Below the pieces are notes generated by a model. It searched no databases. It worked only from the letters and a program-made list of their open reading frames with translations, and was not told the origin of the DNA. The translations under genes and the position numbers were made by a program. A stretch of DNA of 42,336 nt, taken from contig JAFUEE010000179.1 in NCBI GenBank assembly GCA_017464085.1, positions 1 to 42,336 on the forward strand. The letters run 5' to 3'. This document shows positions 372 through 35,800 of the stretch, one piece after another. How positions within the stretch are numbered: the first letter of the stretch is position 1; the number at the start of each line of letters is the position of its first letter. Origin of the DNA: Pseudomonadota bacterium. GTDB lineage: Bacteria > Myxococcota_A > Bradymonadia > UBA4248.

Positions 372-392
372 TATTTTACAAGGAGGCGTGTG

Positions 393-11288: not shown

Positions 11289-11412
11289 TGCGGATAGTTG
11301 CCTTCCGGGATGTCGTTGAGCAGTTAATCAGATATCTGGTTTGAAAAAGCGCGAACTAAACGGTATAACGGCAGAAGATGGTGTTTTCGCCAACGACTTT
11401 AAGGAGATTAGT

Positions 11413-13893
11413 ATGAAAAAAGCCCGTATAGCGATTTTAGTGTGTATGCTTTCAGGGTGTTTTGCCGTGTGCGGGTGCGGAAGCAGTGACGTGATCATCG
11501 GCAATACCGGCGGAAGCGGCGGAAGCGGCGGAGGCAATCAGGATAAGCCTTGCGTCGGGGATGCGTGTGATACGGAGGATGCGTGTACGGCGGAGAGCTG
11601 TCCGGATGGAGAGTGCGTGGATGGTCAGTGTGTACCGGATTGCACGGGCGATTCCTGTGGCGAGCCGGAGACATGCACGTTTGAGACTTGTCCGGATGGG
11701 GATTGTGTAGACGGTGAATGCGTGCCGCGTGAGGAAACGTGCAATGCCGAGACATGCCCGAATGGAAAATGCATCGCTGGGGAGTGTGTCATACCGAAAT
11801 GCGATGCGCCCGATGCGGACAATGACGGCATATCCGATGAGAATGAGGGGCGTGCGGAGAATCGCGACAGCGATGGCGATACGGTGCCTGACTATCTGGA
11901 CGATGACAGTGACGGGGACACGATTCCTGATCGCATCGAGGCTGGTAATGAAGGCTGCGCCAACACAAAGCCGGTTGATACGGACAGCGATATGATTCCG
12001 GATTATCTGGATGATGACAGCGATGATAACGGCATTCCTGACAGCCTGGAAGCCGGCGCGAATCCTCAGAGCCCGATAGACACGGATGGGGATACGGTGC
12101 CGGATTATATCGATGATGACAATGACGGGGATGGCATTCCCGACATTCTCGAGATTTATGGCGAAGTCGTGAGCGGCGCGAATCTTCCGGAAGGCAAGAT
12201 CTCTGCGGATTGCGATGGGGACGGCCAGGCGGATGATGCTGGGACGGCAGAGAATCCGCGTGATTGCGATGCCGATGGCGTGCCTGACTATATGACGCCT
12301 GACAGTGACGGCGATACGCTTCGTGACGATTATGAAGGCAGCAGGCGCGTCGGGCCTTATCTTGCGAGATATTCGACAGACAGCGATTCCAATGGGATAT
12401 CCGACGCGGATGAATGCCGTGGGCAGATGTCTGATGGCTATCAGATCAGCTGTGCGGATACGGACAATGATACGGTTCCGGACTTCCTCGACCTGGATAA
12501 TGACGGCGATTCTCTGTCGGATGTGTATGAAATCGGCAAGGGATATGACCCGAATAATTCTGATTCGGACGGTGACGGCGCGGACGACCTGATCGAAATC
12601 GGGGCAGGGACAGACCCGAAGGATCCGAATGTGAATCCGCAGAGCGAGGGAAACTTCGTGTTCAAAGTGCCGTATAAGAAGAAAGCCGAGCCAGAGAAAC
12701 AGTCGCTGAGCTTCGCGACATCGGTCCAGACGGTGGATATTTACTTTGCCGTCGATACGAGCGGCTCGATGAGCGGGGAGATAAATACACTTAAGAGTGA
12801 GCTGCCTGCGATGCTTGAGGAGATGCGCTGCAAAGACCTTGGCCGTAATTGTGCGGACAATAATGACTGCGAAGGGCTGAATGGAGGGAAGGCGATCTGT
12901 AGCGAGTCTGGACGTTGTATTGTGGATCCGTCAGAAGGTGATGGTTGTTTTGCGGATATGTGGACGGGATTTGGCGTCTGGGGCAATGTGAACCGGTTTG
13001 AAAACTGGCAGTCTCTTGATGCGACGCCGTCAAACACGACGAAAGAACTGGGTAATGTAAAGTTAAATGATCAGGGAATGTCTGAAAATAGCATTCAGGT
13101 CGGGGCGTGTGTTTCAGAAGGCACGAAATACTGCAAGAATACATCGTCGATTAAATGTTATCAAGGAAGTGGTCGCGTTGGTTGTGTCGGTTTCCGCCAA
13201 GATGCGATTAAAATCTTGATTCAGGCAGGTGATGAGGCGAATTACGATTCTTCTGATTGGAGAGTGACAGATGCCAAGAAGACTGGGGATTCGCTGCGCA
13301 AGAATAATATCCGATATATCGGTCTGTACGGCTGTAGCGGGTCAGGTAGTAAGAAAAAATGTGAGGCACGAGATAAGGGGCAGGCGCAAGTGGCGTGCTG
13401 GGCAGGTTCGTGTGCAGCAGGCGGGAATTGTGCGGCATCTTGCGACAGCATCAGCTCAAGCGAGATGAGCGGGCTTTATCTGGCGGAGATTGCGGACGCG
13501 ACCATTCGCAGTGAGACGATCGCAAATGTGCGCAAGCTCGCGAAAGGCATGAACCTTCACATCACTTCGGGCGTGGAGGATGTGGACAAGGGGGCTGCGC
13601 AGCTCGTGAAGGAGCTGAAGGTGAACATCACGGATTCGGAAGTGCAGGGCCGTACGTGCACGAAAGTGAGCGGGATTTCCGGGGATACGTTCCAGTCGAT
13701 CGAGAAGCTTGCGCCGGGCACGAGCGTGTGTTTCGACGTGATTCCTGTGGACTATCAGGAGCTTTTCCCGCCGACGAACGAGCCTCAGGTGATCAAAGCG
13801 AGAATCAAGGTCATGGGCGACGGCTCGACGCTGAATTCGGGAATCGCTTATTTCCTTGTTCCGCCTGAGATTCAGGAAGAGCATATCAACTGA
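11413..13893 (+). CDS. TSP3-repeat / vWA-domain lipoprotein, paralog 1 (Cys-rich CPDGxC repeats; about 12 thrombospondin type-3 Asp-rich Ca-binding repeats; vWA metal-binding motif 'DTSGSM'; Cys-containing C-terminal domain)
   Basis: The start is ATG 11413 after AAGGAG. The lipoprotein signal is 'MKKARIAILVCMLSGCFAVCGC'. It is 60-70% identical to the next three genes, judged by eye. Confidence 0.85.
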   Translation: MKKARIAILVCMLSGCFAVCGCGSSDVIIGNTGGSGGSGGGNQDKPCVGDACDTEDACTAESCPDGECVDGQCVPDCTGDSCGEPETCTFETCPDGDCVDGECVPREETCNAETCPNGKCIAGECVIPKCDAPDADNDGISDENEGRAENRDSDGDTVPDYLDDDSDGDTIPDRIEAGNEGCANTKPVDTDSDMIPDYLDDDSDDNGIPDSLEAGANPQSPIDTDGDTVPDYIDDDNDGDGIPDILEIYGEVVSGANLPEGKISADCDGDGQADDAGTAENPRDCDADGVPDYMTPDSDGDTLRDDYEGSRRVGPYLARYSTDSDSNGISDADECRGQMSDGYQISCADTDNDTVPDFLDLDNDGDSLSDVYEIGKGYDPNNSDSDGDGADDLIEIGAGTDPKDPNVNPQSEGNFVFKVPYKKKAEPEKQSLSFATSVQTVDIYFAVDTSGSMSGEINTLKSELPAMLEEMRCKDLGRNCADNNDCEGLNGGKAICSESGRCIVDPSEGDGCFADMWTGFGVWGNVNRFENWQSLDATPSNTTKELGNVKLNDQGMSENSIQVGACVSEGTKYCKNTSSIKCYQGSGRVGCVGFRQDAIKILIQAGDEANYDSSDWRVTDAKKTGDSLRKNNIRYIGLYGCSGSGSKKKCEARDKGQAQVACWAGSCAAGGNCAASCDSISSSEMSGLYLAEIADATIRSETIANVRKLAKGMNLHITSGVEDVDKGAAQLVKELKVNITDSEVQGRTCTKVSGISGDTFQSIEKLAPGTSVCFDVIPVDYQELFPPTNEPQVIKARIKVMGDGSTLNSGIAYFLVPPEIQEEHIN

Positions 13894-13925
13894 TTGGCAG
13901 CTGGCCTGCTTTATCGTGGGGTGAA

Positions 13926-13958
13926 GCGAGCCGTCCGCAAGGGCGGCTCGCTTTTTTA
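13926..13958 (+). terminator. Rho-independent terminator after paralog 1
   Basis: GCGAGCCGTCC-gcaa-GGGCGGCTCGC followed by TTTTTT. Confidence 0.85.
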
Positions 13959-14063
13959 TTGGGGCAGAAAATTGCCGGGCGTATCGCGCAGCGATAGCAC
14001 GGCAAAGGCGGCCGTATGCGCCTTTGCGCATAGGCTGCCGCAGACAGGATGTCCTGATGAGGC

Positions 14064-14106
14064 AAAAAAAAATCGAAATCGGAAAAAACATCTGCTAAGT
14101 AATAGG
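14064..14106 (+). promoter_or_regulatory. Conserved A-rich upstream module (A9 tract ...ATCGAAATCGGAAAAAACATCTGCTAAGTAATAG) about 150 bp upstream of paralog 2; homologous copy 16941..16988 upstream of paralog 3
   Basis: The two intergenic regions share this module and neighbouring REP-like palindromes, so the duplication appears to have included the regulatory DNA. The A9/A8 homopolymer could slip. Confidence 0.4.
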
Positions 14107-14213
14107 CGTTTGCGATTTTGGACTGAATGTCCGGCTGGTTTTTAGACGTAGAAGCCCGTTCAACGTGTTGATGCGTTTTGTTGTGATGCCTATCCGTGGG
14201 CAGGAGATTTGAT

Positions 14214-16739
14214 ATGAAGAAAGTGCATCTCATGATGCTTGTCTGGTTGATTGGCAGCGCGTGTGCTGCGACCGGTTGCGATGAAAAGACGAGTGAAGAG
14301 GCGCAGAAGCAGGCAGAATGCGTGGGGGATGCTTGCGAGCCGTCGTGCACGCCGGAAAATTGTCCGGACGGCACATGTGAGGATGGCAAATGCGTGAAGC
14401 CGTGTTCAGGAAGTGCGTGTGGGACGGTGGAGACGTGCAGCGCCGAGACATGCCCGGACGGAGACTGTGTGGATGGGGCGTGTGTGCCTCGTGCTGAGTC
14501 GTGCAGCGCAGCGACGTGTCCAAATGGCAAGTGCATCCAGGGCGAATGCGTGATCCCGAAATGCGATGCGCCGGACGAGGATAATGACGGCATTTCGGAT
14601 GAGGATGAAGGGCGCGCGGAAAACCGCGACAGCGATGGCGATACAGTGCCGGATTATCTGGATGAGGACAGCGACGGGGACACGATCCCGGACCGCGTGG
14701 AAGCGGCGAATGACGGATGTTCGCGCAACAAGCCGGTAGATACGGACGGCGATGCGATTCCGGATTATCTGGATGAGGACAGCGACGATAACGGGATACC
14801 GGACAGCGTGGAAGCAGGGGCGGATCCGAAGAATCCGGTGGATACGGATGGCGACGGGGTGCCCGATTACCGCGACGATGACAATGATGGGGATGGATTT
14901 TCTGATATCCTCGAGATTTATGGTGAAGTGGCTGCCGGTGTGGAAGTGCCGGTGGGAAAGATTTCTTCGGACTGCAATGGCGATGGCGTGGCGGACGATA
15001 TGGGGACGCTCGATAAGCCGAGGGATTGCGACGGCGACGGGGTGCCCGATTACATGTCACCGGACAGTGACGGCGACTCTTTGCCCGATGCTTATGAAGG
15101 AAGCAAACGTGCTGGGCAGTGGCTCGCAAGATATTCGAAAGACAGCGACCTGAACGGCATTCCGGACAAGGAAGAATGCGGCGGGACGAAGGACGAGGCC
15201 GGGCATCAGACGGATTGCGTGGATACGGACGGGGATACGCTGCCAGATTTTCTGGATCATGACAACGACGGCGATTCGCTTTCGGACGTGTATGAGATCA
15301 GCAAAGGGTACGATCCCGGCAAAGCTGACAGCGACGGGGACGGCGCGGACGATCTGATCGAGGTCGGCGCTGGGACTGATCCGATGGATCCGAATGTGAA
15401 TCCGCAGAGCGAGGGCAACTTCGTGTTCAAGGTGCCGTACAAAAAGAAAGCAGAGCCTGAGAAGCAGTCGCTGAGCTTTGCGACTTCGGTGCAGACGGTC
15501 GATATCTATTTTGCCGTGGATACGAGCTCTTCGATGGGGGATGAAATCAAGACATTGAAGACTGAGCTCCCTGCGATGCTGGATATGATGCGCTGTCGTG
15601 ACCTTGAGCGTGACTGCGTCGCCAATTCGGACTGCAAGGATCTGAATGACGGCAAGGCGATCTGCAGTGTCGCTGGGCGATGCATCGTGGATCCCAATTC
15701 GGTTGTCGAGAAGAATCCTGAGACGAAACAGGATGAGGTCGTCGGGTGTTTTGTGGACATGTGGACGGGCTTCGGCGTGTGGGGCAACCTGAACACATTC
15801 AGCAACTGGCAGTCTCTGGATGCCGATCCGAGGAAGACGACGAAGGCGCTCGATATCGTCAATATGGATTCTCAAGGCGATAATGAAAACAGCGTCCAGG
15901 TGGGGGCCTGTGTGTCTGAAGGGCTCACCTATTGCTGCAGGAATATGGACAATGTGTGCACTCAGGAAGAGGCGCAGGTATGCCAGAATGAGGACAAGAT
16001 CAAGTGTTATGACGGCGATGACCGTATCGGGTGCGTGGGGTATCGAAAGGATGCGATCAAGATTCTGATTCAGGCTGGGGATGAGCGCAACTTTGAATCG
16101 GGCACTGTCGAGCAGAAGTGCTGGCGATACAGCAATGCTGAGCGGACGGGCACATCGCTTCGGAAGAATAATATCCGATATATCGGTCTGTATGGCACGC
16201 CTGAGGCGCGCGACAAGGGGCTGAGCCAGGTGGCTTGCTGGGCCGGCTCATGCGCGGCGGGCGGCAATTGCGCGCTTTCGTGCAATGTCATGTCAGACAG
16301 CGAGAAAGCGGGGCTGTATCTTGCGGCGATTCATAACGAAGATATCAAGGAAAAGACGGTATCTATGGTGCGCAAGCTCGCGAAAGGCATGAACCTGCAC
16401 ATCACATCTGGTGTCGAGGATATGGATGCGGATGCGTCCAAGCTCGTGAAAGGGCTTCAGCTGAATGTGACGGACGAGAGCGTTCAGGGGCGCAACTGCA
16501 CGAAGATAGACGCTTCGCTCGTATCCTCGGATGCTTTCCCGGGGATTGAAAAGCTTGCGCCGGGCACGACAGTCTGCTTTGATGTGCTGCCCGTCGATTA
16601 TCAGGAAATTTTCCCTCCGAAGGAGGAACCTCAGGTAAAGAAGGCCAAGATCAATATATTTGGTGACGGCTCGATGCTGAATTCGGGGATTGCGTATTTC
16701 CTCATTCCGCCTGAGATACAGGAGGATCAGGTCAACTGA
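14214..16739 (+). CDS. TSP3-repeat / vWA-domain lipoprotein, paralog 2
   Basis: The start is ATG 14214 after CAGGAG. The signal is 'MKKVHLMMLVWLIGSACAATGC', and it has the vWA metal-binding motif 'DTSSSM'. Confidence 0.85.
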   Translation: MKKVHLMMLVWLIGSACAATGCDEKTSEEAQKQAECVGDACEPSCTPENCPDGTCEDGKCVKPCSGSACGTVETCSAETCPDGDCVDGACVPRAESCSAATCPNGKCIQGECVIPKCDAPDEDNDGISDEDEGRAENRDSDGDTVPDYLDEDSDGDTIPDRVEAANDGCSRNKPVDTDGDAIPDYLDEDSDDNGIPDSVEAGADPKNPVDTDGDGVPDYRDDDNDGDGFSDILEIYGEVAAGVEVPVGKISSDCNGDGVADDMGTLDKPRDCDGDGVPDYMSPDSDGDSLPDAYEGSKRAGQWLARYSKDSDLNGIPDKEECGGTKDEAGHQTDCVDTDGDTLPDFLDHDNDGDSLSDVYEISKGYDPGKADSDGDGADDLIEVGAGTDPMDPNVNPQSEGNFVFKVPYKKKAEPEKQSLSFATSVQTVDIYFAVDTSSSMGDEIKTLKTELPAMLDMMRCRDLERDCVANSDCKDLNDGKAICSVAGRCIVDPNSVVEKNPETKQDEVVGCFVDMWTGFGVWGNLNTFSNWQSLDADPRKTTKALDIVNMDSQGDNENSVQVGACVSEGLTYCCRNMDNVCTQEEAQVCQNEDKIKCYDGDDRIGCVGYRKDAIKILIQAGDERNFESGTVEQKCWRYSNAERTGTSLRKNNIRYIGLYGTPEARDKGLSQVACWAGSCAAGGNCALSCNVMSDSEKAGLYLAAIHNEDIKEKTVSMVRKLAKGMNLHITSGVEDMDADASKLVKGLQLNVTDESVQGRNCTKIDASLVSSDAFPGIEKLAPGTTVCFDVLPVDYQEIFPPKEEPQVKKAKINIFGDGSMLNSGIAYFLIPPEIQEDQVN

Positions 16740-16768
16740 TCGGCATGAGGCGCATGCCGATGGATGCG

Positions 16769-16796
16769 AGGCCGCCCTTCGGGGCGGCTTTTTTTG
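16769..16796 (+). terminator. Rho-independent terminator after paralog 2 (GGCCGCCC-ttcg-GGGCGGC + T7), preceded by a CGGCATG/CATGCCG hairpin
   Basis: Seen directly in the sequence. Confidence 0.9.
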
Positions 16797-16940
16797 ATTA
16801 CTTTTTTGGTGGCATGAGACGGCGCTTTTGAGCGTGCTGCACTGCTTGAGCGAGAAAATAGTGGCAGCCGTGCGTATCGGCGCAGCCGATAGCGCGGCTG
16901 GGCGGCAGTATGCGCATGGCGCATAGGCCGCCCGACAATT

Positions 16941-16988
16941 AAAAAGCAAAAAAAATCGAAAAGGGTAAAAACATCTGCTAGATATAGT
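16941..16988 (+). promoter_or_regulatory. Second copy of the conserved A-rich upstream module, about 130 bp upstream of paralog 3
   Basis: See 14064..14106. Confidence 0.4.
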
Positions 16989-17070
16989 CGGATATGCTAG
17001 AGGCTTGTCTGTTGTCAGCACGGCATATTTTTGACCAGTTTGAAGAAAGTCCTTTTTCAGGAGAACGGAT

Positions 17071-19530
17071 ATGAAAAAAATGCATCTCAAGATGCTTGTC
17101 TTGTTACTTGGAAGCGCGCTTCTTGTGTCTGCTTGTGACAGCAATTCGGAAAATCAGGAAGAGAAGCCGGGACCCGGAGTTGGGACTTGTGAAGGGGATG
17201 ATTGCGAGGATCCTGAGGTGTGCACTCCTGCGAATTGCCCCAATGGCACATGCATGTATGGCAAGTGTGTGGAAGCGTGTACGGGAAGTGACTGCGAAAA
17301 GCCGGAAACATGCACGTCTGCGAACTGCCCGGATGGGGAATGCGTGGACGGCGTATGCAGAGAGATTTGCCCGAACGGCCGCAATGAGGATGGCAGCTGC
17401 ATCGTCGTTTCGAAATGTTCCGCGCCTGATGAAGACAAGGACGGGATCTCGGATGAACATGAGGGACGCGCGTCCAATCGTGACACGGATGGCGACACGG
17501 TGCCGGACTATCTGGATGATGACAGCGACGGCGACACGATTCCCGACAGCGTGGAAGCAAACAATGGCGGATGTTCAGGAACCGCGCCCGATGATGCGGA
17601 CTATGACCTGATACCGAATTACCTCGACACGGACAGCGACAACAACGGCATTCTCGACAGCGCGGAAGCCGGTGCGGATCCGGCGAAGCCCGTGGACAGC
17701 GATGGCGATACGGTGCCGGATTATCTGGATGACGACAACGACGGCGACGGCCTGTCGGATGATCTGGAAATCTATGGGGAAGCGGCATTTGGCCTGGATG
17801 TTCCTGAAGGAAAGATCTCTGCGGACTGTGACGGCGACGGCGCGCATGATGATGCAGGGAGCCCGGAACATCCGCGCGACTGCGACAAGGATGGCGTGCC
17901 CGATTATATGTCTGTTGACAGCGATGGCGACACGATCCCGGATCAGCATGAAGGGCAGCACCGCGCGAGCCAGTATTTGGCGCGGTATTCCAAGGACAGC
18001 GATGAGAATGGCATTCCGGACAGCGTGGAATGTCACGGTACGCCCGATGAGAACGGGCTTATGACGGTCTGTGTGGACACGGATGGCGACACGATCCCGG
18101 ATTATCGCTCGCTCGACAATGACGGGGATCTGCTCTCTGATATGTACGAAAAAGAGATCGGCACAGACCCGGACAACGCGGATACGGATGGTGACGGCGC
18201 GAACGATATGGTCGAGATCGGTGCGGGGACGGATCCGCTTGATCCGAATGTCAATCCGCAGAGCAGGGGCGATTTTGTGTTCACCGTGCCTTATGGCAAG
18301 AAATCCACGCCCGACAAGCAGTCGCTGAGCTTTGCGACATCTGTGCAGAAGGTCGATATCTATTTTGCAGTCGATACGAGCATGTCGATGCAGGATGAGA
18401 TCAAGACGCTGCAGGAATATCTGCCCGATATGCTCGAGGAGATGCGGTGCAAAGAGCTCGGCAAGGACTGCGAGAGCAACAGCGACTGTCTGGAACTGAA
18501 TGAGGGCAAGGCGCTGTGCAGCGAGCAGAAGCGATGCATCGAGGATCCGCATACGGTCACGGCTGTGAATGCAGAGGGGGAGGAAGAAATCGTCGGCTGC
18601 TTCACGGATATGTGGACGGGATTTGGCGTGTGGGGCAATCTGAACTCGTTCAAGAACAAGCAGTCCATTAACGAGGACACGAAGGCGACGACGGATGCGC
18701 TCGGCGCAGTTGTTTTTAATGCCGAGGGTGACGATGAGAATACGATACAGCCTCCGGCATGCGTGTCTGAGGGCGTGACGTTCTGCACGAACACTGAGAC
18801 GATCGCATGCTATAAGGGCAAGGAAAAGCGCAAGGGGTGTGTCGGCTATCGCAAGGACGCGATCAAGATTCTCGTGCAGGCAGGCGATGAGCAGAACAAA
18901 AATGACGGTCTCGGCTTCAATGTGTCTGATGCCGGAAAAGTCGGGGAGTCGCTGCGCAAGAACAGCATCCGGTATCTCGGCCTGTATGGCAGCAAGGATG
19001 CTTATGACCATGGCATGAAGCAGCTCGCGTGCTATGCCGGCTCCTGTCCGGACAGCGAGGATTGCGCGGCGACCTATCATGACTGCACACGCATGACCGC
19101 AGCGGAAAACAAGGCGCTTTTCCTCGCGGCGATCAATAACGCGGACATCAAGGAAAAGACTGTCGAGAACGTGCGCAAGCTTGCGAACAAGATGAAGCTC
19201 AAGATCACCTCGGACGTGGAGGATATCGATAAGGATGCGTCGAAACTCGTCAAGGCATTGAAGGTCAATATCACGGATGAGGAAGTTCAGGGCAAGCCGT
19301 GTTCGAAAGTCGAAGGCATTTCCGGAGAGCCGTTCGAGTCTATCGCGCATCTGTCACCGGGCCTGAGCGTGTGCTTTGATGTGATTCCGGAAGATTTCCA
19401 GAAGGTGTTTCCGCCGACGGACAAGCCGCAGCTCAAGCGGGCCAGAATCAAGGTTATGGGCGACGGCTCGACATTGAACACGGGGGTCGCGTACTTCCTG
19501 ATCCCGCCTGGAACGCAGGAAGTCAACTGA
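17071..19530 (+). CDS. TSP3-repeat / vWA-domain lipoprotein, paralog 3
   Basis: The start is ATG 17071 after CAGGAG. The signal is 'MKKMHLKMLVLLLGSALLVSAC', and it has the vWA metal-binding motif 'DTSMSM'. An A7 tract lies in codons 2-3. Confidence 0.85.
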   Translation: MKKMHLKMLVLLLGSALLVSACDSNSENQEEKPGPGVGTCEGDDCEDPEVCTPANCPNGTCMYGKCVEACTGSDCEKPETCTSANCPDGECVDGVCREICPNGRNEDGSCIVVSKCSAPDEDKDGISDEHEGRASNRDTDGDTVPDYLDDDSDGDTIPDSVEANNGGCSGTAPDDADYDLIPNYLDTDSDNNGILDSAEAGADPAKPVDSDGDTVPDYLDDDNDGDGLSDDLEIYGEAAFGLDVPEGKISADCDGDGAHDDAGSPEHPRDCDKDGVPDYMSVDSDGDTIPDQHEGQHRASQYLARYSKDSDENGIPDSVECHGTPDENGLMTVCVDTDGDTIPDYRSLDNDGDLLSDMYEKEIGTDPDNADTDGDGANDMVEIGAGTDPLDPNVNPQSRGDFVFTVPYGKKSTPDKQSLSFATSVQKVDIYFAVDTSMSMQDEIKTLQEYLPDMLEEMRCKELGKDCESNSDCLELNEGKALCSEQKRCIEDPHTVTAVNAEGEEEIVGCFTDMWTGFGVWGNLNSFKNKQSINEDTKATTDALGAVVFNAEGDDENTIQPPACVSEGVTFCTNTETIACYKGKEKRKGCVGYRKDAIKILVQAGDEQNKNDGLGFNVSDAGKVGESLRKNSIRYLGLYGSKDAYDHGMKQLACYAGSCPDSEDCAATYHDCTRMTAAENKALFLAAINNADIKEKTVENVRKLANKMKLKITSDVEDIDKDASKLVKALKVNITDEEVQGKPCSKVEGISGEPFESIAHLSPGLSVCFDVIPEDFQKVFPPTDKPQLKRARIKVMGDGSTLNTGVAYFLIPPGTQEVN

Positions 19531-19547
19531 TCTGAGTGAATAAGTTT

Positions 19548-19577
19548 ACGGGCGCATTTGAATGCGCCCGTTTTCTG
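19548..19577 (+). terminator. Rho-independent terminator after paralog 3 (ACGGGCGCA-tttgaa-TGCGCCCGT + TTTCT)
   Basis: The 9-bp stem is perfect. Coordinates are +/-1. Confidence 0.8.
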
Positions 19578-19639
19578 TATCTGATTGAGTGGCTGCTTGG
19601 ATTGATGCGCGCAGTGCTTGGGGCTGATATGGAATCAAT

Positions 19640-19800
19640 CATAATGTATGGCTGTTCAGAAATTGCATGAAGATTGCAATTTAGAATATTATATATTATT
19701 TGTGGAATTTGTATTTATATAATTATGTATAAATATGGTGATAATATATATAAATTTTCAGTCATTTGAATGGCAATGATTTTTCGGCAGCAGTGGGAAG
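19640..19800. promoter_or_regulatory. Markedly AT-rich island (about 160 bp, visually <25% GC versus a genome around 57%) with the inverted repeat AAATTGCA-N7-TGCAATTT; upstream of paralog 4
   Basis: Compositional contrast is seen directly. Multiple TATAAT-like hexamers are present. Confidence 0.5.
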
Positions 19801-20030
19801 ACACTGATGGGATTCCGGGAGACAATAGCCAGTATGTGCGAGAGGCACATCTGCGAGGCGATTTGTACGGATGGGGCACAGGGCGCATGGTGAAGCTGAG
19901 CGAGATGCCGACGCATGCTCTGTGTTGCCCACAAAAAAATGCGCAGTGATTGCAAATATCTGTTAAGCTATGAAAGTGTTGTGTGTTTGAACAAGCCCTT
20001 TGTGGTGATGTTGTGTTGGAGTGAGTGATC

Positions 20031-22502
20031 ATGGCGATACAGAAGCGTTTGGGGATGATCTTGTGCATGTTTTCCGGAATTTGGGCGTTATCTGGATGCG
20101 GCGGGGAGAAGCCGCATTCGGATAACGATCCGTGCGCGGATGGGGCTTGCCAGGAGGCGCATTGCAATGCCGAGACATGCCCGGACGGGGCGTGTCTCGA
20201 TGGGGAATGCGTCAGAACGTGCGCAGGCGCGTCATGTGATGCGAAGTGCAGCGCCGAGACATGCCCGGACGGGGAGTGCGTGAATGACGAATGCCTCGAG
20301 AAGTGCCTGAATGGCAGAGATGAAACAGGCAGATGCATGGAGGATGCGCCGAAGTGCAAGGCCCCCGATGCGGACCGCGACGGTATTTCGGATGCGGACG
20401 AAGGGCGTTCGGAAAATCGCGATACGGATGGCGATGGAGAGCCAGATTATCTGGACGATGACAGTGACGGGGATACGATACCGGACAGCGTGGAAGCGCG
20501 CAACGGCGGCTGTTCGGATAACAGGCCGGCGGATACGGATTATGACGGGGAGCCTGATTATCTGGATGACGACAGCGACGGCAACGGTATTCCGGACCGC
20601 ATTGAGGCGGGGGCGGATCCAGCGCATCCGATCGACACGGACGGCGACGGGGAGCCCGATGTTGTAGATGATGACAACGATGGGGACGGCATCTCGGATG
20701 TCATTGAAATCTATGGCGAAGTCGCGACAGGCCTTCAGGTGCCTGCGGGCAAGATCTCTGCGGACTGCGACGGGGATGGCGAACCGGATGACGAAGGGAC
20801 TGCGGAAGCGCCGCGCGACTGCGACGCGAATGGGATGCCCGACTATCTCGATCCGGACAGCGACGGGGATACGCTGCCCGATGCGTATGAGCGCTTCGAA
20901 CGCACCGGGCAGTGGTTTGCGCGCTATTCATCCGACAGTGACGGAAATGGGGAGCCGGATCGCGAGGAATGTGGCGGATCGCCGGATGAGAATGGCTATT
21001 TGTCAGCCTGTGTCGACACGGACGGTGACGGCAAGCCGGATTATCTCGATCTCGACGATGACGGCGATTCGCTTCCCGATATCTATGAGAGGGCGCACGG
21101 GCTTAATCCCAAACATCAGGATACGGACGGGGATGGCGCGGATGATCTTATTGAAATCGGTGCAGGCACGGACCCGACAGATCCGAACGTGAATCCGCAG
21201 AGCGAAGGGAATTTCGTGTTCAAAGTGCCGTACCGCGGGAAATCGTCGCCGGAAAAGCAGACCCTGAGCTTCGAGACTGCCATTCAGCTGATAGACCTGT
21301 TCTTTATCGTGGACAACACGGGGTCGATGGGGGAGGAGACGCAGGCATTTGCCGAATCGCTCCCTGCGATACTCCAGACGCTTCAGTGCACGGACAAGGG
21401 CAAGAAGTGCGAGGATAACAATGACTGTGCGGAATTCGAGCATTCGATCTGTTCTGAATCCGGCAAATGCATCCAGTCGCCAGCGTACGGCGATGGCTGT
21501 TTTGACAAGATGCAGACGGGCATCGGGTTTTATTCGAAGATGGATTCATTCTGGGTCGCCAGTGCTGTCGGGGACGATGTGAAAAAGACTGTTTCGGCGC
21601 TCAAGGCACGTTTCAGCTCGATCACGACGAAAGACGAGAGCTATGACGGGTTCTGCTCGACAGGTAATTATGAGCCGCCTTATCAGATGCCGATTTGCGC
21701 GCTTCTGGGCACGGATACGTTCAATGGCAAGCAGTACTGCCGAGCGGAGGGGAATGCGACGTGCAAGGTCTCCCCGACTGCGGACAAGACATGCGGCGTG
21801 TACAGCACGTGCAAGATCGGGTGTTCTGGCGACAGCACTCGCTTGGGGTGCGCCGGCTTCCGGAATGAGGCGATACGCCTGATCATTGAGGTGTTCGACG
21901 AGGAAGAATGCGCGCTGAACAAGGGGGATGATGTCAAGGCGCGCTGCGATTCGTTCCGGGCGTCGATCGGCTCGGTGCTCAAGAAATATACGACGCGATA
22001 TATCGGCCTGTGGGGGACATATAACAACGTCGCGATGGAAGATACGGCAAAGGCGATCAGCCTGGCGGTCAACGGCACAGACCAGTATGCGTTCGAGGCG
22101 CAGGATGCGAATGTCGTGGCCCAGACGATCGATGGCGTCCGCAAAATCGCCAAGAATATGCCGATTGATGTGACCACAAGCGTCGAGGATATCGACGAGA
22201 ACGCATCAAAGCTCGTGAAGGCGCTCAGAGTGAACGTCACGGATGAAGAAGTTCAGGGGCGTGCGTGCACGAAAGTCCCGAACATCAGCGGTGAGGATTT
22301 TCAGTCGATCGGGGCGCTCCACCCGGGCACGAGCGTCTGTTATGACGTGATCCCGCTCGATTATCAGGATGTGATCAGGCCGACGTCGGAGCCGCAGGTG
22401 GTCCGCGCAAAGATCAAGGTCATGGGGGACGGCTCGACGCTGAACTCGGGCATTGCATATTTTCTGATTCCGCCGGTGATCGGGGATGAGCAGGTGAACT
22501 GA
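20031..22502 (+). CDS. TSP3-repeat / vWA-domain lipoprotein, paralog 4 (most divergent: 'DGEPDY' repeat variant; vWA metal-binding motif 'DNTGSM'; longer Cys-rich post-vWA region)
   Basis: The start is ATG 20031; the track ORF starts at an in-frame GTG at 20025. The signal is 'MAIQKRLGMILCMFSGIWALSGC'. Confidence 0.8.
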   Translation: MAIQKRLGMILCMFSGIWALSGCGGEKPHSDNDPCADGACQEAHCNAETCPDGACLDGECVRTCAGASCDAKCSAETCPDGECVNDECLEKCLNGRDETGRCMEDAPKCKAPDADRDGISDADEGRSENRDTDGDGEPDYLDDDSDGDTIPDSVEARNGGCSDNRPADTDYDGEPDYLDDDSDGNGIPDRIEAGADPAHPIDTDGDGEPDVVDDDNDGDGISDVIEIYGEVATGLQVPAGKISADCDGDGEPDDEGTAEAPRDCDANGMPDYLDPDSDGDTLPDAYERFERTGQWFARYSSDSDGNGEPDREECGGSPDENGYLSACVDTDGDGKPDYLDLDDDGDSLPDIYERAHGLNPKHQDTDGDGADDLIEIGAGTDPTDPNVNPQSEGNFVFKVPYRGKSSPEKQTLSFETAIQLIDLFFIVDNTGSMGEETQAFAESLPAILQTLQCTDKGKKCEDNNDCAEFEHSICSESGKCIQSPAYGDGCFDKMQTGIGFYSKMDSFWVASAVGDDVKKTVSALKARFSSITTKDESYDGFCSTGNYEPPYQMPICALLGTDTFNGKQYCRAEGNATCKVSPTADKTCGVYSTCKIGCSGDSTRLGCAGFRNEAIRLIIEVFDEEECALNKGDDVKARCDSFRASIGSVLKKYTTRYIGLWGTYNNVAMEDTAKAISLAVNGTDQYAFEAQDANVVAQTIDGVRKIAKNMPIDVTTSVEDIDENASKLVKALRVNVTDEEVQGRACTKVPNISGEDFQSIGALHPGTSVCYDVIPLDYQDVIRPTSEPQVVRAKIKVMGDGSTLNSGIAYFLIPPVIGDEQVN

Positions 22503-30476: not shown

Positions 30477-30570
30477 TTAAAATTCTCCAGAATCTGGCGA
30501 GGGAAAATTCCTCGCAAAATAGCGGCGCGCTTTTATCACAAAGTGCGGGGTTTTATGAGTATTTTTTTAG

Positions 30571-30627
30571 CGTTCCGAGGAACGCCTTTACATCTGGCGC
30601 GCCTATGCCTGACGGCATACGGCACGC
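30571..30627. repeat. REP-like family D dispersed copy, at the start of a 570-bp repeat- and palindrome-dense intergenic region (30477..31049) that also holds two 34-bp direct repeats (CCCTTGCCCCAATACGCC(T/A)GGCGCCATTGT), two GGGCACGGCATGCCCGTCG palindromes and GCGCGGCGTAT...GCGC repeats
   Basis: Seen directly in the sequence. Confidence 0.6.
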
Positions 30628-30991
30628 ATCTGTATGGGCGCGTCTATCGGCTTTGCCGATATGCCGCGCATGCGCCTGGCTATTGGTGGCAAGCGGGCAT
30701 GCCCCCTTGCCCCAATACGCCTGGCGCCATTGTTCGACACACTTTCAGCACTGAAAACGCTTGACCCTTGCCCCAATACGCCAGGCGCCATTGTCGCGAT
30801 ATCACGGGCACGGCATGCCCGTCGCATCCAATCAGCGTAGATGGTTCGGGCACGGCATGCCCGTCGGATTGTCATATGCGCAAAGGCGCAGGATGTCTGC
30901 GGCGCGGCGTATGCGCAGCATAGTCGCGCCTTAAGCGCGGCGTATCGCAGATAGCCGCGCAAAAATTTTGGAACGTGTCGGGAAAAAATCA

Positions 30992-31020
30992 TTGAATGCA
31001 GTGATTTGCAAGGTTAGACT
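30992..31020 (+). promoter_or_regulatory. Candidate sigma-70 promoter TTGAAT-N17-TAGACT for the 31050 gene
   Basis: The spacing is consensus-like and the -10 hexamer lies about 30 nt upstream of AGGAGGG-N4-ATG. Confidence 0.35.
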
Positions 31021-31049
31021 GCGCGCAGGTTTTTCTATAGGAGGGTGAT

Positions 31050-32435
31050 ATGAGTATTTTTGACAAGCAGAATCAAAGGGAAAAAACGAGTGCCGCACCT
31101 GAGAAACAGGCAGCGGAGCGTGTCGCTGGCGCGGTGGCTGCGCCCAAGACGGCTGAGATGGAATTTTCGGAAGCGTTGATCTCGAAGTCGGGCAGTGCGG
31201 CTGTCGCGGCGCTTGAAAAAGCGCAGCCGGAAGAGCGGAGGAGCATTGCTGCCAACAGCGCGCTGATGTCGACGATGAAGCAGTCGCTCGACAAGAAAAG
31301 CCGCAAGGCATGCGAGAAATTTTTGCCGGTCAAACCGTCGCGGAATCCGCTTGCGAGCCTGTGGGGCGGTCTCAAAGACAAGGCTTCGAATGTGCTTTCG
31401 GATGCATCCGACTGGCTGGATGGCGCGAAAGATTCTGCATCCGATCTGATTTCGGGTGCGAAAGACTCTGCGGCCGATCTGCTTTCGGGTGCGCAAGGGG
31501 CTGTTTCGGGGCTGCTGACAGATCCGAAAGGCACTGTCTCTGATTTTTTGAACGGCGCGAAAGATACAGCCACAGACCTTTGGAATGGCGCAAAAGAAAC
31601 CGCGACAGGGCTCTATAACGATGCCAAAGAAAACGTGATCGATCCCGCTGTGGATTCAGCCAAGGCGTTCATTCCTCAGAACGTTTCCAATGAGGTCGTC
31701 GTCGGCGCGTATGACCTGATGAGCCGTTTCACAAATACGATGTCTGATAAGGATATTGAGCAGCACCGTTCGGACAATGCGAAGACGATCGGCATGGATG
31801 ACGCGGGCAATTCTGCGATTTTGAATCTCGACAAGGATCATCAGTTTATTGAAAATCAGAATGATCTTGAGGATATCGCGTATGGCAAGGGGCTGAGCAA
31901 CATGTCGTATTCCGGTTGCGAGATTATTGCGACGTTCAATGCGCTGCGCGCGGTCGGTGAAAATCCGAAACTTGAAGATCTGATTGCCGATTATGAAAAG
32001 AATGGCATGGCGCTGAACGGCCAGTTTGGCACGGCGCCTGGCGCGATACTCAGATTTTTCCAGAAAGAGGGCTTTGCCTGTGAGATGCTGACGGAATTTT
32101 CACCGGAATCACTGGTGGAGTTCAGCAGGAAATATCAGACGTTCATCGCCACGGTGTATAATGACGAAAATGATATCACAAATATGATTCATACCGTCAG
32201 CATTACGAAAGATAATGCATCCGGCAGCGATCAGTTTGCGGTGCATAATGCGTATGCATACAGCAATAATGCCAGCGATCCTCGCAGGGCGCACATGAAA
32301 GTGACATCTGGGAAGCAGTGGGTTGCGCTTGAGGGGTATGCATCCATCGAGGATGCGATTGCCGATATATCCAAATCGAGCGTCAAGCCGATTACGCTGA
32401 TCGGCATCAACGGCAAACAGCTCTCTGATAAATAA
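31050..32435 (+). CDS. Non-secreted repeat protein: N-terminal approximately 11-residue 'GAKD-x-A-x-DL' amphipathic repeats (about 8 copies) plus a C-terminal putative papain-like Cys/His domain ('SYSGCEIIATFNAL' ... 'IHTVSI' ... 'HNAYAY')
   Basis: The start is ATG 31050 after AGGAGGG. No signal peptide is present. The order and spacing of Cys, His and a downstream polar residue fit a papain-like (C39/BtrH-like) fold. The family is not identified. Confidence 0.7.
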   Translation: MSIFDKQNQREKTSAAPEKQAAERVAGAVAAPKTAEMEFSEALISKSGSAAVAALEKAQPEERRSIAANSALMSTMKQSLDKKSRKACEKFLPVKPSRNPLASLWGGLKDKASNVLSDASDWLDGAKDSASDLISGAKDSAADLLSGAQGAVSGLLTDPKGTVSDFLNGAKDTATDLWNGAKETATGLYNDAKENVIDPAVDSAKAFIPQNVSNEVVVGAYDLMSRFTNTMSDKDIEQHRSDNAKTIGMDDAGNSAILNLDKDHQFIENQNDLEDIAYGKGLSNMSYSGCEIIATFNALRAVGENPKLEDLIADYEKNGMALNGQFGTAPGAILRFFQKEGFACEMLTEFSPESLVEFSRKYQTFIATVYNDENDITNMIHTVSITKDNASGSDQFAVHNAYAYSNNASDPRRAHMKVTSGKQWVALEGYASIEDAIADISKSSVKPITLIGINGKQLSDK

Positions 32436-32478
32436 TAATATATTGAAAAGAGTTTGAAGCGTTATCAATATATTAATT

Positions 32479-32513
32479 CAGGCTGATGGGTGTTGTTCAT
32501 CAGCCTTTTTTAT
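32479..32513 (+). terminator. Rho-independent terminator (AGGCTGATG-ggtgttgtt-CATCAGCCT + T6) only about 15 bp upstream of the next start codon
   Basis: Seen directly in the sequence. The implication is partial read-through into the AAA gene or an independent downstream promoter. Confidence 0.75.
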
Positions 32514-32527
32514 ATATAGGAACAGGG

Positions 32528-34792
32528 ATGGAAAACAAGGATACGCGGACAGATTATGAGCTTCCAGGCGCTGTGTCGCCGTTTGAATCGCATGTGTCGA
32601 TGATGCATGCCTACGGGGAGGTGTTTGTCATTCTGTGCCTGAGATATATGGGTCTGCATGGGGAGCGGATTGTGAACGATGCGGGCGGTTATGGGCCGCA
32701 GTCTGTCGCGCTTGCGGAGCTGTTCGAGGCCGTGACAGGGCAGCGTTCGCAGCAGAGCCTTGAATGGATGCAGGGACACAGGGTGCCGCCGCCGGAAGCA
32801 TGCCGACTCGCCGCCCAGGCGCGTCTGGAACACATACGGCATTGCTGCGAGCGGACATTTGAAGCGCATGAAGCTGGGAAGCTTGAGAATTTCCCGAAAG
32901 ATGCGGATCCGGTGCCTGTCGAGACGCTTCAGAACAATTTTGGACTGACGACGCTTGAAGTGTTTGTCATCCTGTCATGCGCGCTGATTCAGTTTGACGA
33001 GCGATATGCACGCGCGTGGCATTATGTGACGGGGGCGAATGCGGACGCACATCCGACCGCTGGATTTCTGACCGAGCTTTTGCGCGATTTTGCGCGCGAT
33101 GACCGCGAGCTTGTGTCTTGTTTTATGCAGACATCCGCGTTGCGCCGGTATGCGCTTGTGGAGATTGCAAGCGCGCCTGGGCGCAACGACAGCGAGCCTC
33201 CAGTGAGCAGTGCGCAGGTCTCGGTGCCCAACCGGATTGTCTCTCTTCTGATCGGGAATCAGGCGGTGTGTGTGCCTGAGTCATGCCGCATGCTGGAACG
33301 CTCATCTGCCGAGGCGCTTGCGTCTGCCAAGACAGCGGAGAACGCGATATTTCGCCAGATGCAGAAAAAGAGCATGCGCCTGGCCGTGCTCGGGTATCGC
33401 GGCATTGGGCGGAGAGATGCTGTCTGTCAGGCTGCGGGGCGGCTGGGCGTTCCCGTGATGCTTCTTTCGCTTGACGAGCTGTGCGACCGCCTGATGCAGG
33501 ATCGTCAGACAGAGCGGTATTTTGCATCTATTTTGCGCGAGATACGTATCAGTCATGCGGTGTTGCTCGTCGATGCGGAAGCGCTTCAGTCTGAACATGA
33601 GACCTGGCTGCTCAGGCATGCGCACAAGATCAGGATGGTCTTTGAAAAAGAGGCGCATCTTTCGCTGGCAGTGCTGCTCGAACGCCAGAATTCGCTGTCT
33701 CGGGAAGTCTTTGGGGAGCTTTCGGAAATCGCGATTCCCGCGCCGAGCAGGGCGGAACAGCCAAAACTCTGGCGCGCTGCGCTTTCGCGTCTGCTCGACG
33801 GAGAGACGGCTCAGAGCGTTTCTGAGATGATGGCTGGCGGCTATTGCCTGAGCTATGCAGAAATTATCTCGGCAATTGACCGGACGCGTGCGCGTTTTCC
33901 CTTTGATGCGCCGGCGCGCGCGCTGACCGCCGAGAACCTTTCGGATACCCTGAACAAGACGCGTGGCCAGAAACTTGAAGGTTTGGCTTCGCTTCGCAGC
34001 ACGTCTCTGTACTTGAAAGATATCGTCCTGTCTGAGGATATCCGGAAAGTGCTCAACGAGATTATCAATTATGCAAAATACAGCGAGACCGTCATGCGTG
34101 ACTGGGGCTTCGCGAAATACAATACCTCTGGGGCCGGTCTGAGCGTGCTTCTGTCGGGCGTGCCGGGCACAGGGAAGACGCTGACTGCGCTCGTGCTCGC
34201 GCATGAGCTTGGCAGGGCGCTCTATGTCGTGGATCTTTCCAGGGTTGTCGACAAATATATCGGGGAGACTGAGAAAAAACTTGCGCAGATATTCGATGAG
34301 GCGGAACGTTCTCAGGCGATGCTTCTGTTCGACGAGGCGGACTCGCTGTTTGCCAAGCGCACAGATGTGAAGAGTTCCAATGACAGGTATGCGAATCTGG
34401 AGGTCAATTACCTCTTGCAGCGTCTCGAGGCATATCGCGGCGTGTCGATATTGACGACGAATTTCGGCGGCGGCTTGGATGAAGCGCTTGCGCGAAGGAT
34501 TCAGTTCAAGATCGATTTCCCGATGCCCGATGCGGCACAGCGCACACTGCTGTGGCAAAAGCTGATACCGCCCGGTGCGCCTTGCGCGTCAGATATCGAC
34601 TTCGGTGCGATTGCGGAACACTTCGAGATGAGCGGCGGACACATCAAGAATGCCGTGTTTCGCGCCTCCATACAGGCACTGTCGGAGAACGCCGAAATCA
34701 GCCACGCGATGCTTTGGGAAGCTGCCGCGCATGAATACCGCTCGATGGGGCACATTATGCGTGATGACAGCGAGGATGAGCGCCTGGTCTAG
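32528..34792 (+). CDS. ATPase with N-terminal domain (about 230 aa), a degenerate AAA-like domain (no Walker A) and a C-terminal canonical AAA domain
   Basis: The start is ATG 32528. The canonical AAA domain has Walker A 'GVPGTGKT', 'IGETEKKL', Walker B 'LLFDEAD', second region of homology (SRH) 'TTNFGGGLDEALARR', the conserved residues of classic-clade AAA. Confidence 0.8.
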   Translation: MENKDTRTDYELPGAVSPFESHVSMMHAYGEVFVILCLRYMGLHGERIVNDAGGYGPQSVALAELFEAVTGQRSQQSLEWMQGHRVPPPEACRLAAQARLEHIRHCCERTFEAHEAGKLENFPKDADPVPVETLQNNFGLTTLEVFVILSCALIQFDERYARAWHYVTGANADAHPTAGFLTELLRDFARDDRELVSCFMQTSALRRYALVEIASAPGRNDSEPPVSSAQVSVPNRIVSLLIGNQAVCVPESCRMLERSSAEALASAKTAENAIFRQMQKKSMRLAVLGYRGIGRRDAVCQAAGRLGVPVMLLSLDELCDRLMQDRQTERYFASILREIRISHAVLLVDAEALQSEHETWLLRHAHKIRMVFEKEAHLSLAVLLERQNSLSREVFGELSEIAIPAPSRAEQPKLWRAALSRLLDGETAQSVSEMMAGGYCLSYAEIISAIDRTRARFPFDAPARALTAENLSDTLNKTRGQKLEGLASLRSTSLYLKDIVLSEDIRKVLNEIINYAKYSETVMRDWGFAKYNTSGAGLSVLLSGVPGTGKTLTALVLAHELGRALYVVDLSRVVDKYIGETEKKLAQIFDEAERSQAMLLFDEADSLFAKRTDVKSSNDRYANLEVNYLLQRLEAYRGVSILTTNFGGGLDEALARRIQFKIDFPMPDAAQRTLLWQKLIPPGAPCASDIDFGAIAEHFEMSGGHIKNAVFRASIQALSENAEISHAMLWEAAAHEYRSMGHIMRDDSEDERLV

Positions 34793-35742
34793 CGGATTCT
34801 GTCGAGTCCGAAGTTGAGGATGCTGACCGCTTTGAGCCCCATGTCAAACCAGGCCATTTGAACGTCCTCGATGCGGCTGATCGGCGTGCAAGCGATGACG
34901 AAGCCGCCGCCACCGGCGCCAGTCATGCGCGCGCCGCATGCGCCTTGGTTCAATGCCTCCTGACAGGCTGTCTGCATCGCTTTGGTGACGATGCCGCATG
35001 TTTCATAGATATCTTCCGATTCATTCATGAGCGCGCCGACCCTGAGCGTGTCGCCATGCTGGAGTGCTTCTGCCAGTTGAACGGCGTTCTCTGACATGGC
35101 TTTGTGGTGCGCGATATATTGGAGCGGCTGATCTTGCTTGAGTCCGCGCATGACCGCGTAGGGATCGATCTCAGACCTGGGACCTGTCGTGCCGACGACG
35201 AAAAACATCGGGCTCCCGAGCGGTATGAATTTCGTGGTCTTGTCGCGCTCATAGAACATGATGCGCTTGTAGGCGATGGCGGCGTTGTCGATGCCCGATA
35301 CTGTGCCATGCCATTTGTTTTCAAGCTGTGTGCTGAACCATCTGAGGTAGTTGGGATGCAGATCGTCTGCTAAAAAATGGCGCATCATGGCTTCCATGAT
35401 GGCCTGGCTCAGGGATGAGGATGAGCCTGCGCCTTGCCCGGGTGGAATCGAACTCTTGACCATGCATCGCAGGCCGATGCCGCGCAGGTCGATGCCGAGG
35501 ATCTGCGCGGATTTGATGATCAGGTCTTTGACAAGAGCCTCATGTGTGTCGCGGAGTTCATCAAGCCCTGGCTGCCCGCAGTTGAAATTGCAGATTGCGG
35601 TGATTTCCGGTGTTTCCTGGTCATAGAGGCTGACCTGCGTCGAGAAGCAGGATGCCGGGATGACCACGCTTGGCGCGCCCTCAACGACGAAATGCTCGCC
35701 AGACAATATAAATTTTGAATATGCAGTAGCTATGGTTTGCAT
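34789..35742 (-). CDS. GHMP-family kinase, mevalonate-kinase-like
   Basis: 'SKFILSGEHFVV' and the GHMP motif 'PPGQGAGSSSS' are present. ATG 35742 is preferred because the longer ORF start at 35796 would overlap the upstream terminator hairpin. The gene's 3' end overlaps the convergent AAA gene by 4 bp, sharing a CTAG palindrome for the two stop codons. Confidence 0.65.
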   Translation of the reverse strand: MQTIATAYSKFILSGEHFVVEGAPSVVIPASCFSTQVSLYDQETPEITAICNFNCGQPGLDELRDTHEALVKDLIIKSAQILGIDLRGIGLRCMVKSSIPPGQGAGSSSSLSQAIMEAMMRHFLADDLHPNYLRWFSTQLENKWHGTVSGIDNAAIAYKRIMFYERDKTTKFIPLGSPMFFVVGTTGPRSEIDPYAVMRGLKQDQPLQYIAHHKAMSENAVQLAEALQHGDTLRVGALMNESEDIYETCGIVTKAMQTACQEALNQGACGARMTGAGGGGFVIACTPISRIEDVQMAWFDMGLKAVSILNFGLDRIR

Positions 35743-35773
35743 GACAACGCTGAGGTGGAGAGGGAAGCGGGCA

Positions 35774-35800
35774 TGAAAAAGGCTGTGCAGAAGCACAGCC
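35774..35800 (-). terminator. Rho-independent terminator of the gap-pgk-tpiA operon (GGCTGTGC-uucu-GCACAGCC followed by U-tract on the minus strand)
   Basis: The 8-bp stem is perfect and is followed by the complement of AAAAA. Confidence 0.75.

Follow-up and report, generated by a model that had tools for sequence, protein, structure and literature searches.

Why should an AAA+ ATPase of the type that loads contractile injection particles directly follow the gene for a predicted papain-fold peptidase, in a setting of housekeeping genes? The question is raised by two adjacent forward-strand genes on contig JAFUEE010000179.1 (assembly GCA_017464085.1), whose 42,336 nucleotides were analyzed as a whole and are referred to here as the window; prfC, alaS, mvk, tpiA, pgk and gap lie around the pair. 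Homology, recurrent linkage, modular architecture and a conserved intergenic hairpin together are consistent with the two genes forming an effector-loader cassette derived from an extracellular contractile injection system (eCIS), a reading to which we assign a probability of about 0.6. Gene 1 would encode the effector and gene 2 the ATPase that recognizes and unfolds it.

Gene 2 as an Afp15/Pvc15-type AAA+ ATPase

Sequence comparison identifies gene 2 as a full-length homologue of Afp15 and Pvc15. The reference Afp15 is encoded on a plasmid of Serratia entomophila, with the contractile-injection tape measure on one side and a DUF4255 protein on the other. A profile of 12 members of the gene 2 clade (defined below) aligned to it in hhalign with a probability of 100% (E 1e-53) over 585 columns that take in the winged-helix, D1 and D2 regions, and BLASTP with gene 2 gave 41% identity in D2 (E 3e-60) together with a collinear match in the winged-helix region. 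Afp15 carries the same pair of Pfam domains as gene 2, PF22977 (E 6.6e-20 in Afp15) and PF00004, the latter being the single AAA domain that Pfam reports for gene 2 (E 1.4e-25). Pvc15 is essential for N-terminal signal recognition, for cargo unfolding and for loading into Photorhabdus virulence cassette (PVC) particles (PMC9054023), and Afp15 homologues are a core component of eCIS (PMC6899500).

The two AAA domains differ in their motifs (Table 1). D1 has VLLVDA and is without the Walker-B acidic pair, and the change in its Walker-A-like loop is a Lys-to-Arg degeneration of the same kind as that in D1 of Pvc15 (PMC11495950). D2 carries Walker A (GTGKT, residue 547), the pore loop KYIG (576), LLFDEAD (599) with the Walker B pair DE at 602-603, LTTN (642) with sensor-1 Asn645, and ARR (655) with Arg fingers at 656-657; it is of the classic clade and has a second region of homology. 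The initial annotation had read this protein as an N-domain, a D1 that has lost Walker A and a canonical D2, which both the motifs and hhalign bear out, and its general likeness to ATPases that partner injection machines can now be made precise as Afp15/Pvc15 homology. The reading frame is open from 32486, and we prefer the start at 32528 because the ATG at 32486 sits within the intergenic hairpin described below and the NCBI gene model (P0019, a 100% match) uses 32528; the start and the length of 754 aa given in the initial annotation agree with P0019.

Gene 1 as a modular protein

The gene 1 product matches at 100% an NCBI-annotated protein (P0001) of an uncultured 'Proteobacteria bacterium' metagenome-assembled genome (MAG), to which P0019 belongs as well, and orthologues with 68-70% identity occur at loci L001 and L015 and on the contig of P0003. 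Searches of Pfam, NCBIfam and PADLOC gave no significant match; the top sub-threshold matches, to YtxH (E 0.026) and DivIVA (E 0.0019), are both low-complexity helical. The full-length AlphaFold2 model has four parts: a disordered tail with a pLDDT of about 30 over residues 1-33, a five-helix domain, a repeat region at residues 95-211 that is modeled as a long helix with low confidence, and the C-terminal domain. The amphipathic repeats within the third part, counted earlier as about eight, are there, and number nearer nine. They appear at the DNA level as a 33-nt period, detected by Tandem Repeats Finder and by a second repeat search (repeat family D1), and indels of exactly 11 and 22 residues among the orthologues indicate that repeat copy number varies.

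A 461-aa protein with no signal peptide had been described, and indeed the open reading frame (ORF) was confirmed and the N-terminus has no hydrophobic stretch. The accompanying term cytoplasmic holds for the site of synthesis only; the product is probably exported.

Table 1. Coordinates of the gene pair and associated features in the window.
Feature	Positions	Strand	Description or basis
Spacer between divergent alaS and gene 1	30477..31049	.	REP-like palindromes, two local direct-repeat pairs
Gene 1, modular effector (proposed)	31050..32435	+	461 aa, ORF
Lys/Glu/Ala-rich tail, residues 1-34	31050..31151	+	predicted disorder
Five-helix N-domain, residues 35-90 (FSEAL..KSG..AV..L..AQPEE..IA..LM)	31152..31319	+	pLDDT 63-86, AlphaFold2
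Linker of about nine 11-residue amphipathic repeats (xAxDLxxGAKD), residues 107-205	31368..31664	+	repeat analysis
Papain-fold C39-like cysteine peptidase domain (predicted), residues 206-461	31665..32432	+	
Candidate catalytic residue Gln270	31857-31859	+	invariant, 18 copies
Candidate catalytic residue Cys290	31917-31919	+	invariant, 18 copies
Candidate catalytic residue His381	32190-32192	+	invariant, 18 copies
Candidate catalytic residues His399-Asn400	32244-32249	+	invariant, 18 copies
AT-rich inverted repeat directly 3' of gene 1 stop	32436..32475	+	14-nt arms, 93% complementary, folds as hairpin
Terminator-like hairpin (12 pairs, 32480-32506) and TTTTTT	32480..32516	+	between gene 1 and gene 2
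Gene 2, Afp15/Pvc15-type AAA+ ATPase	32528..34792	+	754 aa
Winged-helix N domain PF22977, residues ~84-245	32777..33262	+	Pfam E 3e-16, 60 bits (cut-off 27)
Degenerate AAA domain D1	33335..33937	+	aligns to Afp15 D1 (hhalign)
D1 Walker-A-like loop GYRGIGR, residues 289-295	33392-33412	+	Lys to Arg, no Ser/Thr after
Classic-clade AAA domain D2, predicted active	34025..34762	+	Pfam and motifs

A papain-like fold predicted for the C-terminal domain

The initial annotation had proposed a papain-like Cys/His domain at the C-terminus of gene 1. Its motifs lie at residues 288 (SGCEII), 379 (MIHTVSI) and 398 (VHNAYAY) and are invariant in 18 of 18 copies of the domain. When the domain is modeled alone from an 18-sequence alignment the predicted structure is a papain-like alpha+beta fold (pLDDT 90.3, pTM 0.90), in which the candidate catalytic residues occupy canonical positions, the Cys at the N-terminus of a helix and the His and His-Asn on consecutive strands. 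The structural neighbors of this model, with their scores, are Staphopain C (10.0), the C39 domain of PCAT1 (9.6), Josephin-2 (9.5), bacterial Josephin-like 'clippases' (9.2-9.4), ComA and another double-glycine peptidase (9.1), and the C39-like protein 3erv (8.6).

Profile matches differ from member to member of the family. Gene 1 has no match to Pfam PF13529 (Peptidase_C39_2) at E <= 0.1, a threshold passed by 8 of the 18 homologous domains, and two proteins, P0014 with 29 bits and P0015 with 25.5 bits, lie above the 24-bit cut-off of that model; a profile of the domain found no relative among PDB sequences. Neither the structural nor the profile comparison overturned the assignment to a Cys/His hydrolase fold. 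The C39, Josephin and UfSP neighbors cut after Gly-Gly, and from this analogy, which suggests candidate substrates for the gene 1 peptidase, we infer what its target may be.

Recurrence of the peptidase domain with other trafficking modules

Four settings were seen for homologues of the domain: fusion to the PAAR-like domain DUF4280, adjacency to type VII secretion system (T7SS) genes, existence as stand-alone proteins, and a place behind the N-domain seen in gene 1. The DUF4280 fusion adjoins VgrG-like, pentapeptide and RHS-ADP-ribosyltransferase genes. The T7SS-adjacent homologue, P0068, lies directly 3' of YukD and EssC (L106 10001-11281; L107 8892-10172); as recorded it ends ahead of the catalytic His and may be frameshifted. 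Its N-terminus is WXG/LXG-like by eye, Pfam gave no confirmation, and the link to the T7SS is one of position only. Because the domain is fused to DUF4280, T7SS-adjacent, stand-alone and N-domain-linked, it is a polymorphic-toxin cassette whose routes include VgrG/PAAR-like and T7SS modules, a point that had been overlooked in the initial annotation. By homology it is a predicted warhead of the polymorphic-toxin type and fits the Tox-PLC39 class (PMC3482391), which has been reported with trafficking by the type II and type VI secretion systems (T2SS, T6SS) and PVC (PMC3482391). An immunity gene common to the DUF4280-fusion loci and the window was looked for and none was found.

The stand-alone homologues are about 240 aa long and come from rumen Butyrivibrio and relatives. 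One of them, in Butyrivibrio sp. JL13D10 (L103 9001-13371), has 241 aa and a hydrophobic N-terminus, and its gene overlaps the start of an ABC exporter gene pair, an arrangement that recalls split C39-peptidase/ABC bacteriocin exporters.

Both this overlap and the identity of the structural neighbors (PCAT1, ComA, Josephin and UfSP-type proteases of ubiquitin-like proteins) would fit a different role, in which the C39-like domain processes the double-glycine leader or ubiquitin-like tail of a partner substrate and the ATPase presents that protein. Such a role is improbable, however, since no ABC gene adjoins a second stand-alone homologue, the domain stands at the C-terminal warhead position behind trafficking modules in multidomain homologues, and no leader-bearing substrate gene is conserved beside the pair.

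Linkage of the ATPase to an interchangeable effector family

The clade of gene 2 was defined as ATPases at least 46% identical to it, the next relatives (L014, L016 and L017) being at most 32% identical. A clade ATPase directly follows an effector-family partner in nine of the ten distinct genomic contexts, and the paired ATPases are 46-83% identical. The partner takes several forms. It has one C39-like domain in the window/L015 and L001; there are two tandem genes with one C39-like domain each in L008; two tandem C39-like domains are joined in a single protein in L002-4/L097, L099 and L100/101; and in L011/L096, L098 and L102 the partner is HExxH metallopeptidase-like, and the next gene encodes a conserved lipoprotein about 220 aa long.

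What unites these partners is the N-terminal module. The N-domain is present on the upstream partner in eight of the nine paired contexts, the other being L102, where the HExxH partner loses its N-terminus at the contig end. A hidden Markov model (HMM) of the N-domain, whose query was the window/L015 partner itself (not counted here), matches the protein directly 5' of the ATPase in 7 of 10 contexts, HExxH types included, and does so at E 1e-12 across partners bearing different C-terminal domains. An N-terminal module joined to interchangeable C-terminal domains is the pattern by which polymorphic toxins are recognized, and this small conserved domain, common to effectors of another enzymatic type, had escaped the initial annotation. 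A profile search with the N-domain against 1.84 billion representative proteins returned 9 matches only, three of them weak and to annexin-like or other repeat proteins, and no further warhead type behind the N-domain.

The HExxH cassettes, whose effectors share the zinc-metallopeptidase-like motif HELGH, span L011 5890-8142, L096 2453-4714, L098 7568-9994 and L102 2-1865. Their lipoprotein gene always lies between the effector and ATPase genes and is immunity-like in appearance.

The genes flanking the cassette differ from context to context, so the two genes move together. No large neighbor is common to the clade contexts; a large downstream ORF (about 1,440-1,500 aa) recurs in L002/L004 and L097 alone, a likeness of size and position only. 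The clade was seen only in uncultured Pseudomonadota MAGs and metagenome contigs, those with a label coming from animal gut or rumen. These co-occurrence data decide against a purely incidental adjacency, which the initial annotation had allowed for and which might have been read from the lack of a known family for gene 1 and from the terminator between the genes. A pairing kept in nine of ten contexts with differing flanks, divergent ATPases and several effector types leaves that explanation a negligible probability, and it was rejected.

An ATPase beside a protease in a small module with variable contexts also recalls Iet. The IetA models of PADLOC hit the D2 domain (E 2.4e-33), as does NCBIfam IteA (E 5e-28), and with a gene 1 that has no signal peptide the pair could be imagined as an intracellular conflict or defense module, in which the AAA+ protein senses or activates a protease acting on cellular or phage targets. 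Yet the IetA match is confined to D2, the NCBIfam IteA score of 98 bits lies well under the cut-off of 510, PADLOC reports nothing for gene 1, and the full-length architecture of gene 2 is Afp15-like. The peptidase domain is moreover a secreted-toxin cassette found with PAAR-like and T7SS modules, and the HExxH cargo is accompanied by a lipoprotein outside the cytoplasm. An Iet-like function is for these reasons unlikely.

A hairpin between the effector and ATPase genes

The strong terminator that had been noted just ahead of gene 2 was confirmed as a GC-rich hairpin with a T-run (Table 1), the hairpin ending about 15-20 nt before the gene 2 ATG. Of the 9 loci examined, 8 have a strong hairpin and T-run that separate the ATPase gene from the cargo (or lipoprotein) gene, in at least four unrelated sequence forms: those of L015 and L001 are homologous to the one in the window, whereas L002/L097, L008 and L011/L096 have unrelated sequences at the same position. 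This recurrence supports the earlier suggestion that expression of gene 2 is attenuated. Because the gap in the window is too short for a promoter of its own, gene 2 is probably expressed by read-through, and the intergenic terminator would hold the ATPase sub-stoichiometric to its cargo.

Contractile-injection genes near the clade and its relatives

Afp1-14 and Afp16 were used as iterated HMM queries over the ATPase loci. The Afp10 and Afp16 queries gave zero matches in any locus, and the Afp16 (tube-terminator) marker is uninformative. Contractile-injection structural genes are present in 57 of the 79 more distant ATPase loci from genomes, and in 41 of 48 when only distant loci of at least 15 kb are considered, typically in the order Afp11, Afp12, tape measure, ATPase; many of these distant ATPases are shorter, at about 450 aa. 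In the clade itself such genes were found in none of the ten contexts within 10 kb, nor anywhere in the 42-kb window (0/10 versus 57/79, Fisher p = 1.3e-5).

Two long-form ATPases about 32% identical to gene 2, L016 (49-4920) and L017 (9464-11632), have the winged-helix/D1/D2 layout and likewise lie outside contractile-injection clusters. One comes from a Deltaproteobacteria MAG and the other from an uncultured bacterium, and an 859-aa uncharacterized protein is encoded directly 5' of the L016 ATPase.

The lack of injection genes beside the clade weighs against the reading of the pair as an effector-loader cassette derived from eCIS, and other observations weigh in the same direction. Gene 1 is without an immunity gene, the next gene being the ATPase and the 92-bp gap holding no small ORF; the clade member L010 has no visible partner; and the known payload signals of PVC and Afp are short disordered peptides and not a folded domain.

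Some of these points speak for a co-option of the Afp15-type ATPase to export or activation without any injection machine, the toxin being fed to another translocon, packed into vesicles, released by lysis or held inactive until release. Afp15-derived unfoldases would in that case have split from injection systems and would drive or gate a machine-free toxin pathway through a folded 55-residue tag. No injection genes stand near any of the ten contexts on contigs of up to 94 kb, the cassette is self-contained and mobile, L016 and L017 share the architecture outside injection-system clusters, and the folded address tag is unlike the PVC signal peptides. Against this, the pair has no conserved neighbor that could be a translocon, the characterized ATPases of the family all partner a contractile injection particle, and absence from a 10-kb flank is not absence from the genome. 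We consider this co-option possible but doubtful, and the more specific proposal of a machine-free pathway equally so.

Genomic surroundings

Downstream lies a mevalonate-kinase-like gene on the minus strand (34789..35796), convergent with gene 2 and sharing 4 nt with it at the gene 2 stop codon, and upstream the spacer that separates gene 1 from alaS presumably carries the gene 1 promoter. Both the convergent overlap and the roughly 570-bp repeat-dense region upstream had been pointed out in the initial annotation, and both were found as described, the spacer having two direct-repeat pairs and several palindromes, none of which is expected by chance. The related contig L015, from MAG RGIG7731 of water-buffalo rectum, is syntenic with the window on the downstream side. 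No RNA genes were detected in the window by Rfam and tRNA scans.

A palindrome resembling repetitive extragenic palindromic (REP) elements, GGCGCGCCTATGCCTGACGGCATACGGC, at 30596-30633 recurs in L015 at 1-34 and 104-141, where an unannotated ORF lies between the repeats of this type and the gene 1 orthologue. The direct repeats occupy 30704-30794 (30 nt, 61 nt apart) and 30805-30869 (23 nt, 42 nt apart), and the 23-nt unit is itself palindromic: CGGGCACGGCATGCCCG. These pairs may be operator sites or further REP-like elements.

Elsewhere in the window, positions 11341-22502 on the forward strand hold four tandem paralogues of 850, 847, 819 and 825 aa with 47-66% mutual identity. The first, the sole copy translated, encodes a lipoprotein that contains Cys-rich modules, calcium-binding repeats resembling thrombospondin type 3 and a vWA-like metal-ion-dependent adhesion site motif (DTSGSMSGE). 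The only Pfam assignment among the four is a weak match of the third copy to TSP3_bac. A 1191-aa VIT and DUF2135 protein (297-3872) and a 500-aa lamin-tail-domain protein (7968-9470) are unrelated to the gene pair.

Discussion

The results are consistent with a cassette in which cargo and handling factor have been kept together while the enzymatic part of the cargo changes. In the mechanism that we propose, the tail and the 55-residue helical N-domain of gene 1 would act as an address tag, the 11-mer repeats as a linker and the C39-like papain-fold cysteine peptidase as the warhead. Gene 2 would assemble as an AAA+ hexamer in which D2, with its KYIG pore loop, is catalytic and D1, judged from Pvc15, is probably scaffolding. 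The ATPase would recognize the N-terminal module of the effector, stabilize and unfold it, and pass it on to an export device. We infer this export step, and the device would most likely be a contractile injection particle whose genes lie at another place in the genome, or alternatively an undescribed route.

How eCIS ATPases choose and load their cargo matters for the use of PVC and Afp particles as protein-delivery tools. The clade described here is a naturally minimal system, with one ATPase, one cargo and a short folded tag on enzymatically unrelated warheads, and because ATPase and cargo form so small a pair with a short conserved folded tag, the recognition step is directly testable. If it is true that the genomes have no injection machine, the ATPase module would be able to work alone, and the cassette would point to an undescribed toxin-handling route in uncultured Pseudomonadota. 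The peptidase domain in turn adds a defined family of C39/Josephin-like peptidase toxins common to the VgrG/PAAR-like, T7SS and cassette routes.

Comparison with known systems

The closest parallels are Afp15 and Pvc15 of the Serratia Afp and Photorhabdus PVC systems, which have the same winged-helix domain PF22977, degenerate D1 and predicted active D2 as gene 2, and in which the pore-loop segment KYIGETEK is identical. They differ in genomic position: gene 2 does not lie between tape-measure and tube-terminator genes, and its cargo gene is upstream with a terminator in between. The payloads of these particles (Pnf, Pdp1 and Afp18) resemble gene 1 in being ATPase-adjacent, in having no Sec signal peptide and, as proposed here for gene 1, in placing an N-terminal targeting part ahead of the enzymatic domain. 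Loading signals of PVC and Afp are poorly conserved and, where characterized, about 50 residues long, whereas gene 1 has a disordered tail and then a conserved five-helix domain that is common to enzymatically different effectors.

Tox-PLC39/Peptidase_C39_2 domains share with gene 1 the papain-like fold, the ordered Cys, His and polar residue and the C-terminal position (PMC3482391), and both they and the gene 1 domain are associated with T6SS/PVC-type and other trafficking modules. Unlike Tox-PLC39, gene 1 has His-Asn and not Asp at the third catalytic position, and its domain has about 85 extra helical residues at the N-terminus. Auxiliary T6SS effector modules (VgrG/PAAR, adaptor or chaperone, effector and immunity protein) follow the same logic, an effector with a handling factor away from the machine, and the HExxH variants resemble them in their immunity-like lipoprotein. 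The handling factor here, however, is an eCIS-type AAA+ unfoldase and not a DUF4123, DUF1795 or DUF2169 adaptor, and there is no spike protein. Iet shares with the gene pair the combination of an AAA ATPase and a protease, but IetA has a single domain and a length of about 370 aa, and its partner IetS is a subtilisin-like serine protease, whereas the gene 1 partner is papain-fold.

The arrangement of the gene pair is not described in the literature searched. Its parts are known in kind; what is new is an Afp15-like clade that stands apart from injection clusters, the strict coupling of that clade to polymorphic effectors by way of the small folded N-domain that these share, and the conserved terminator between the two genes.

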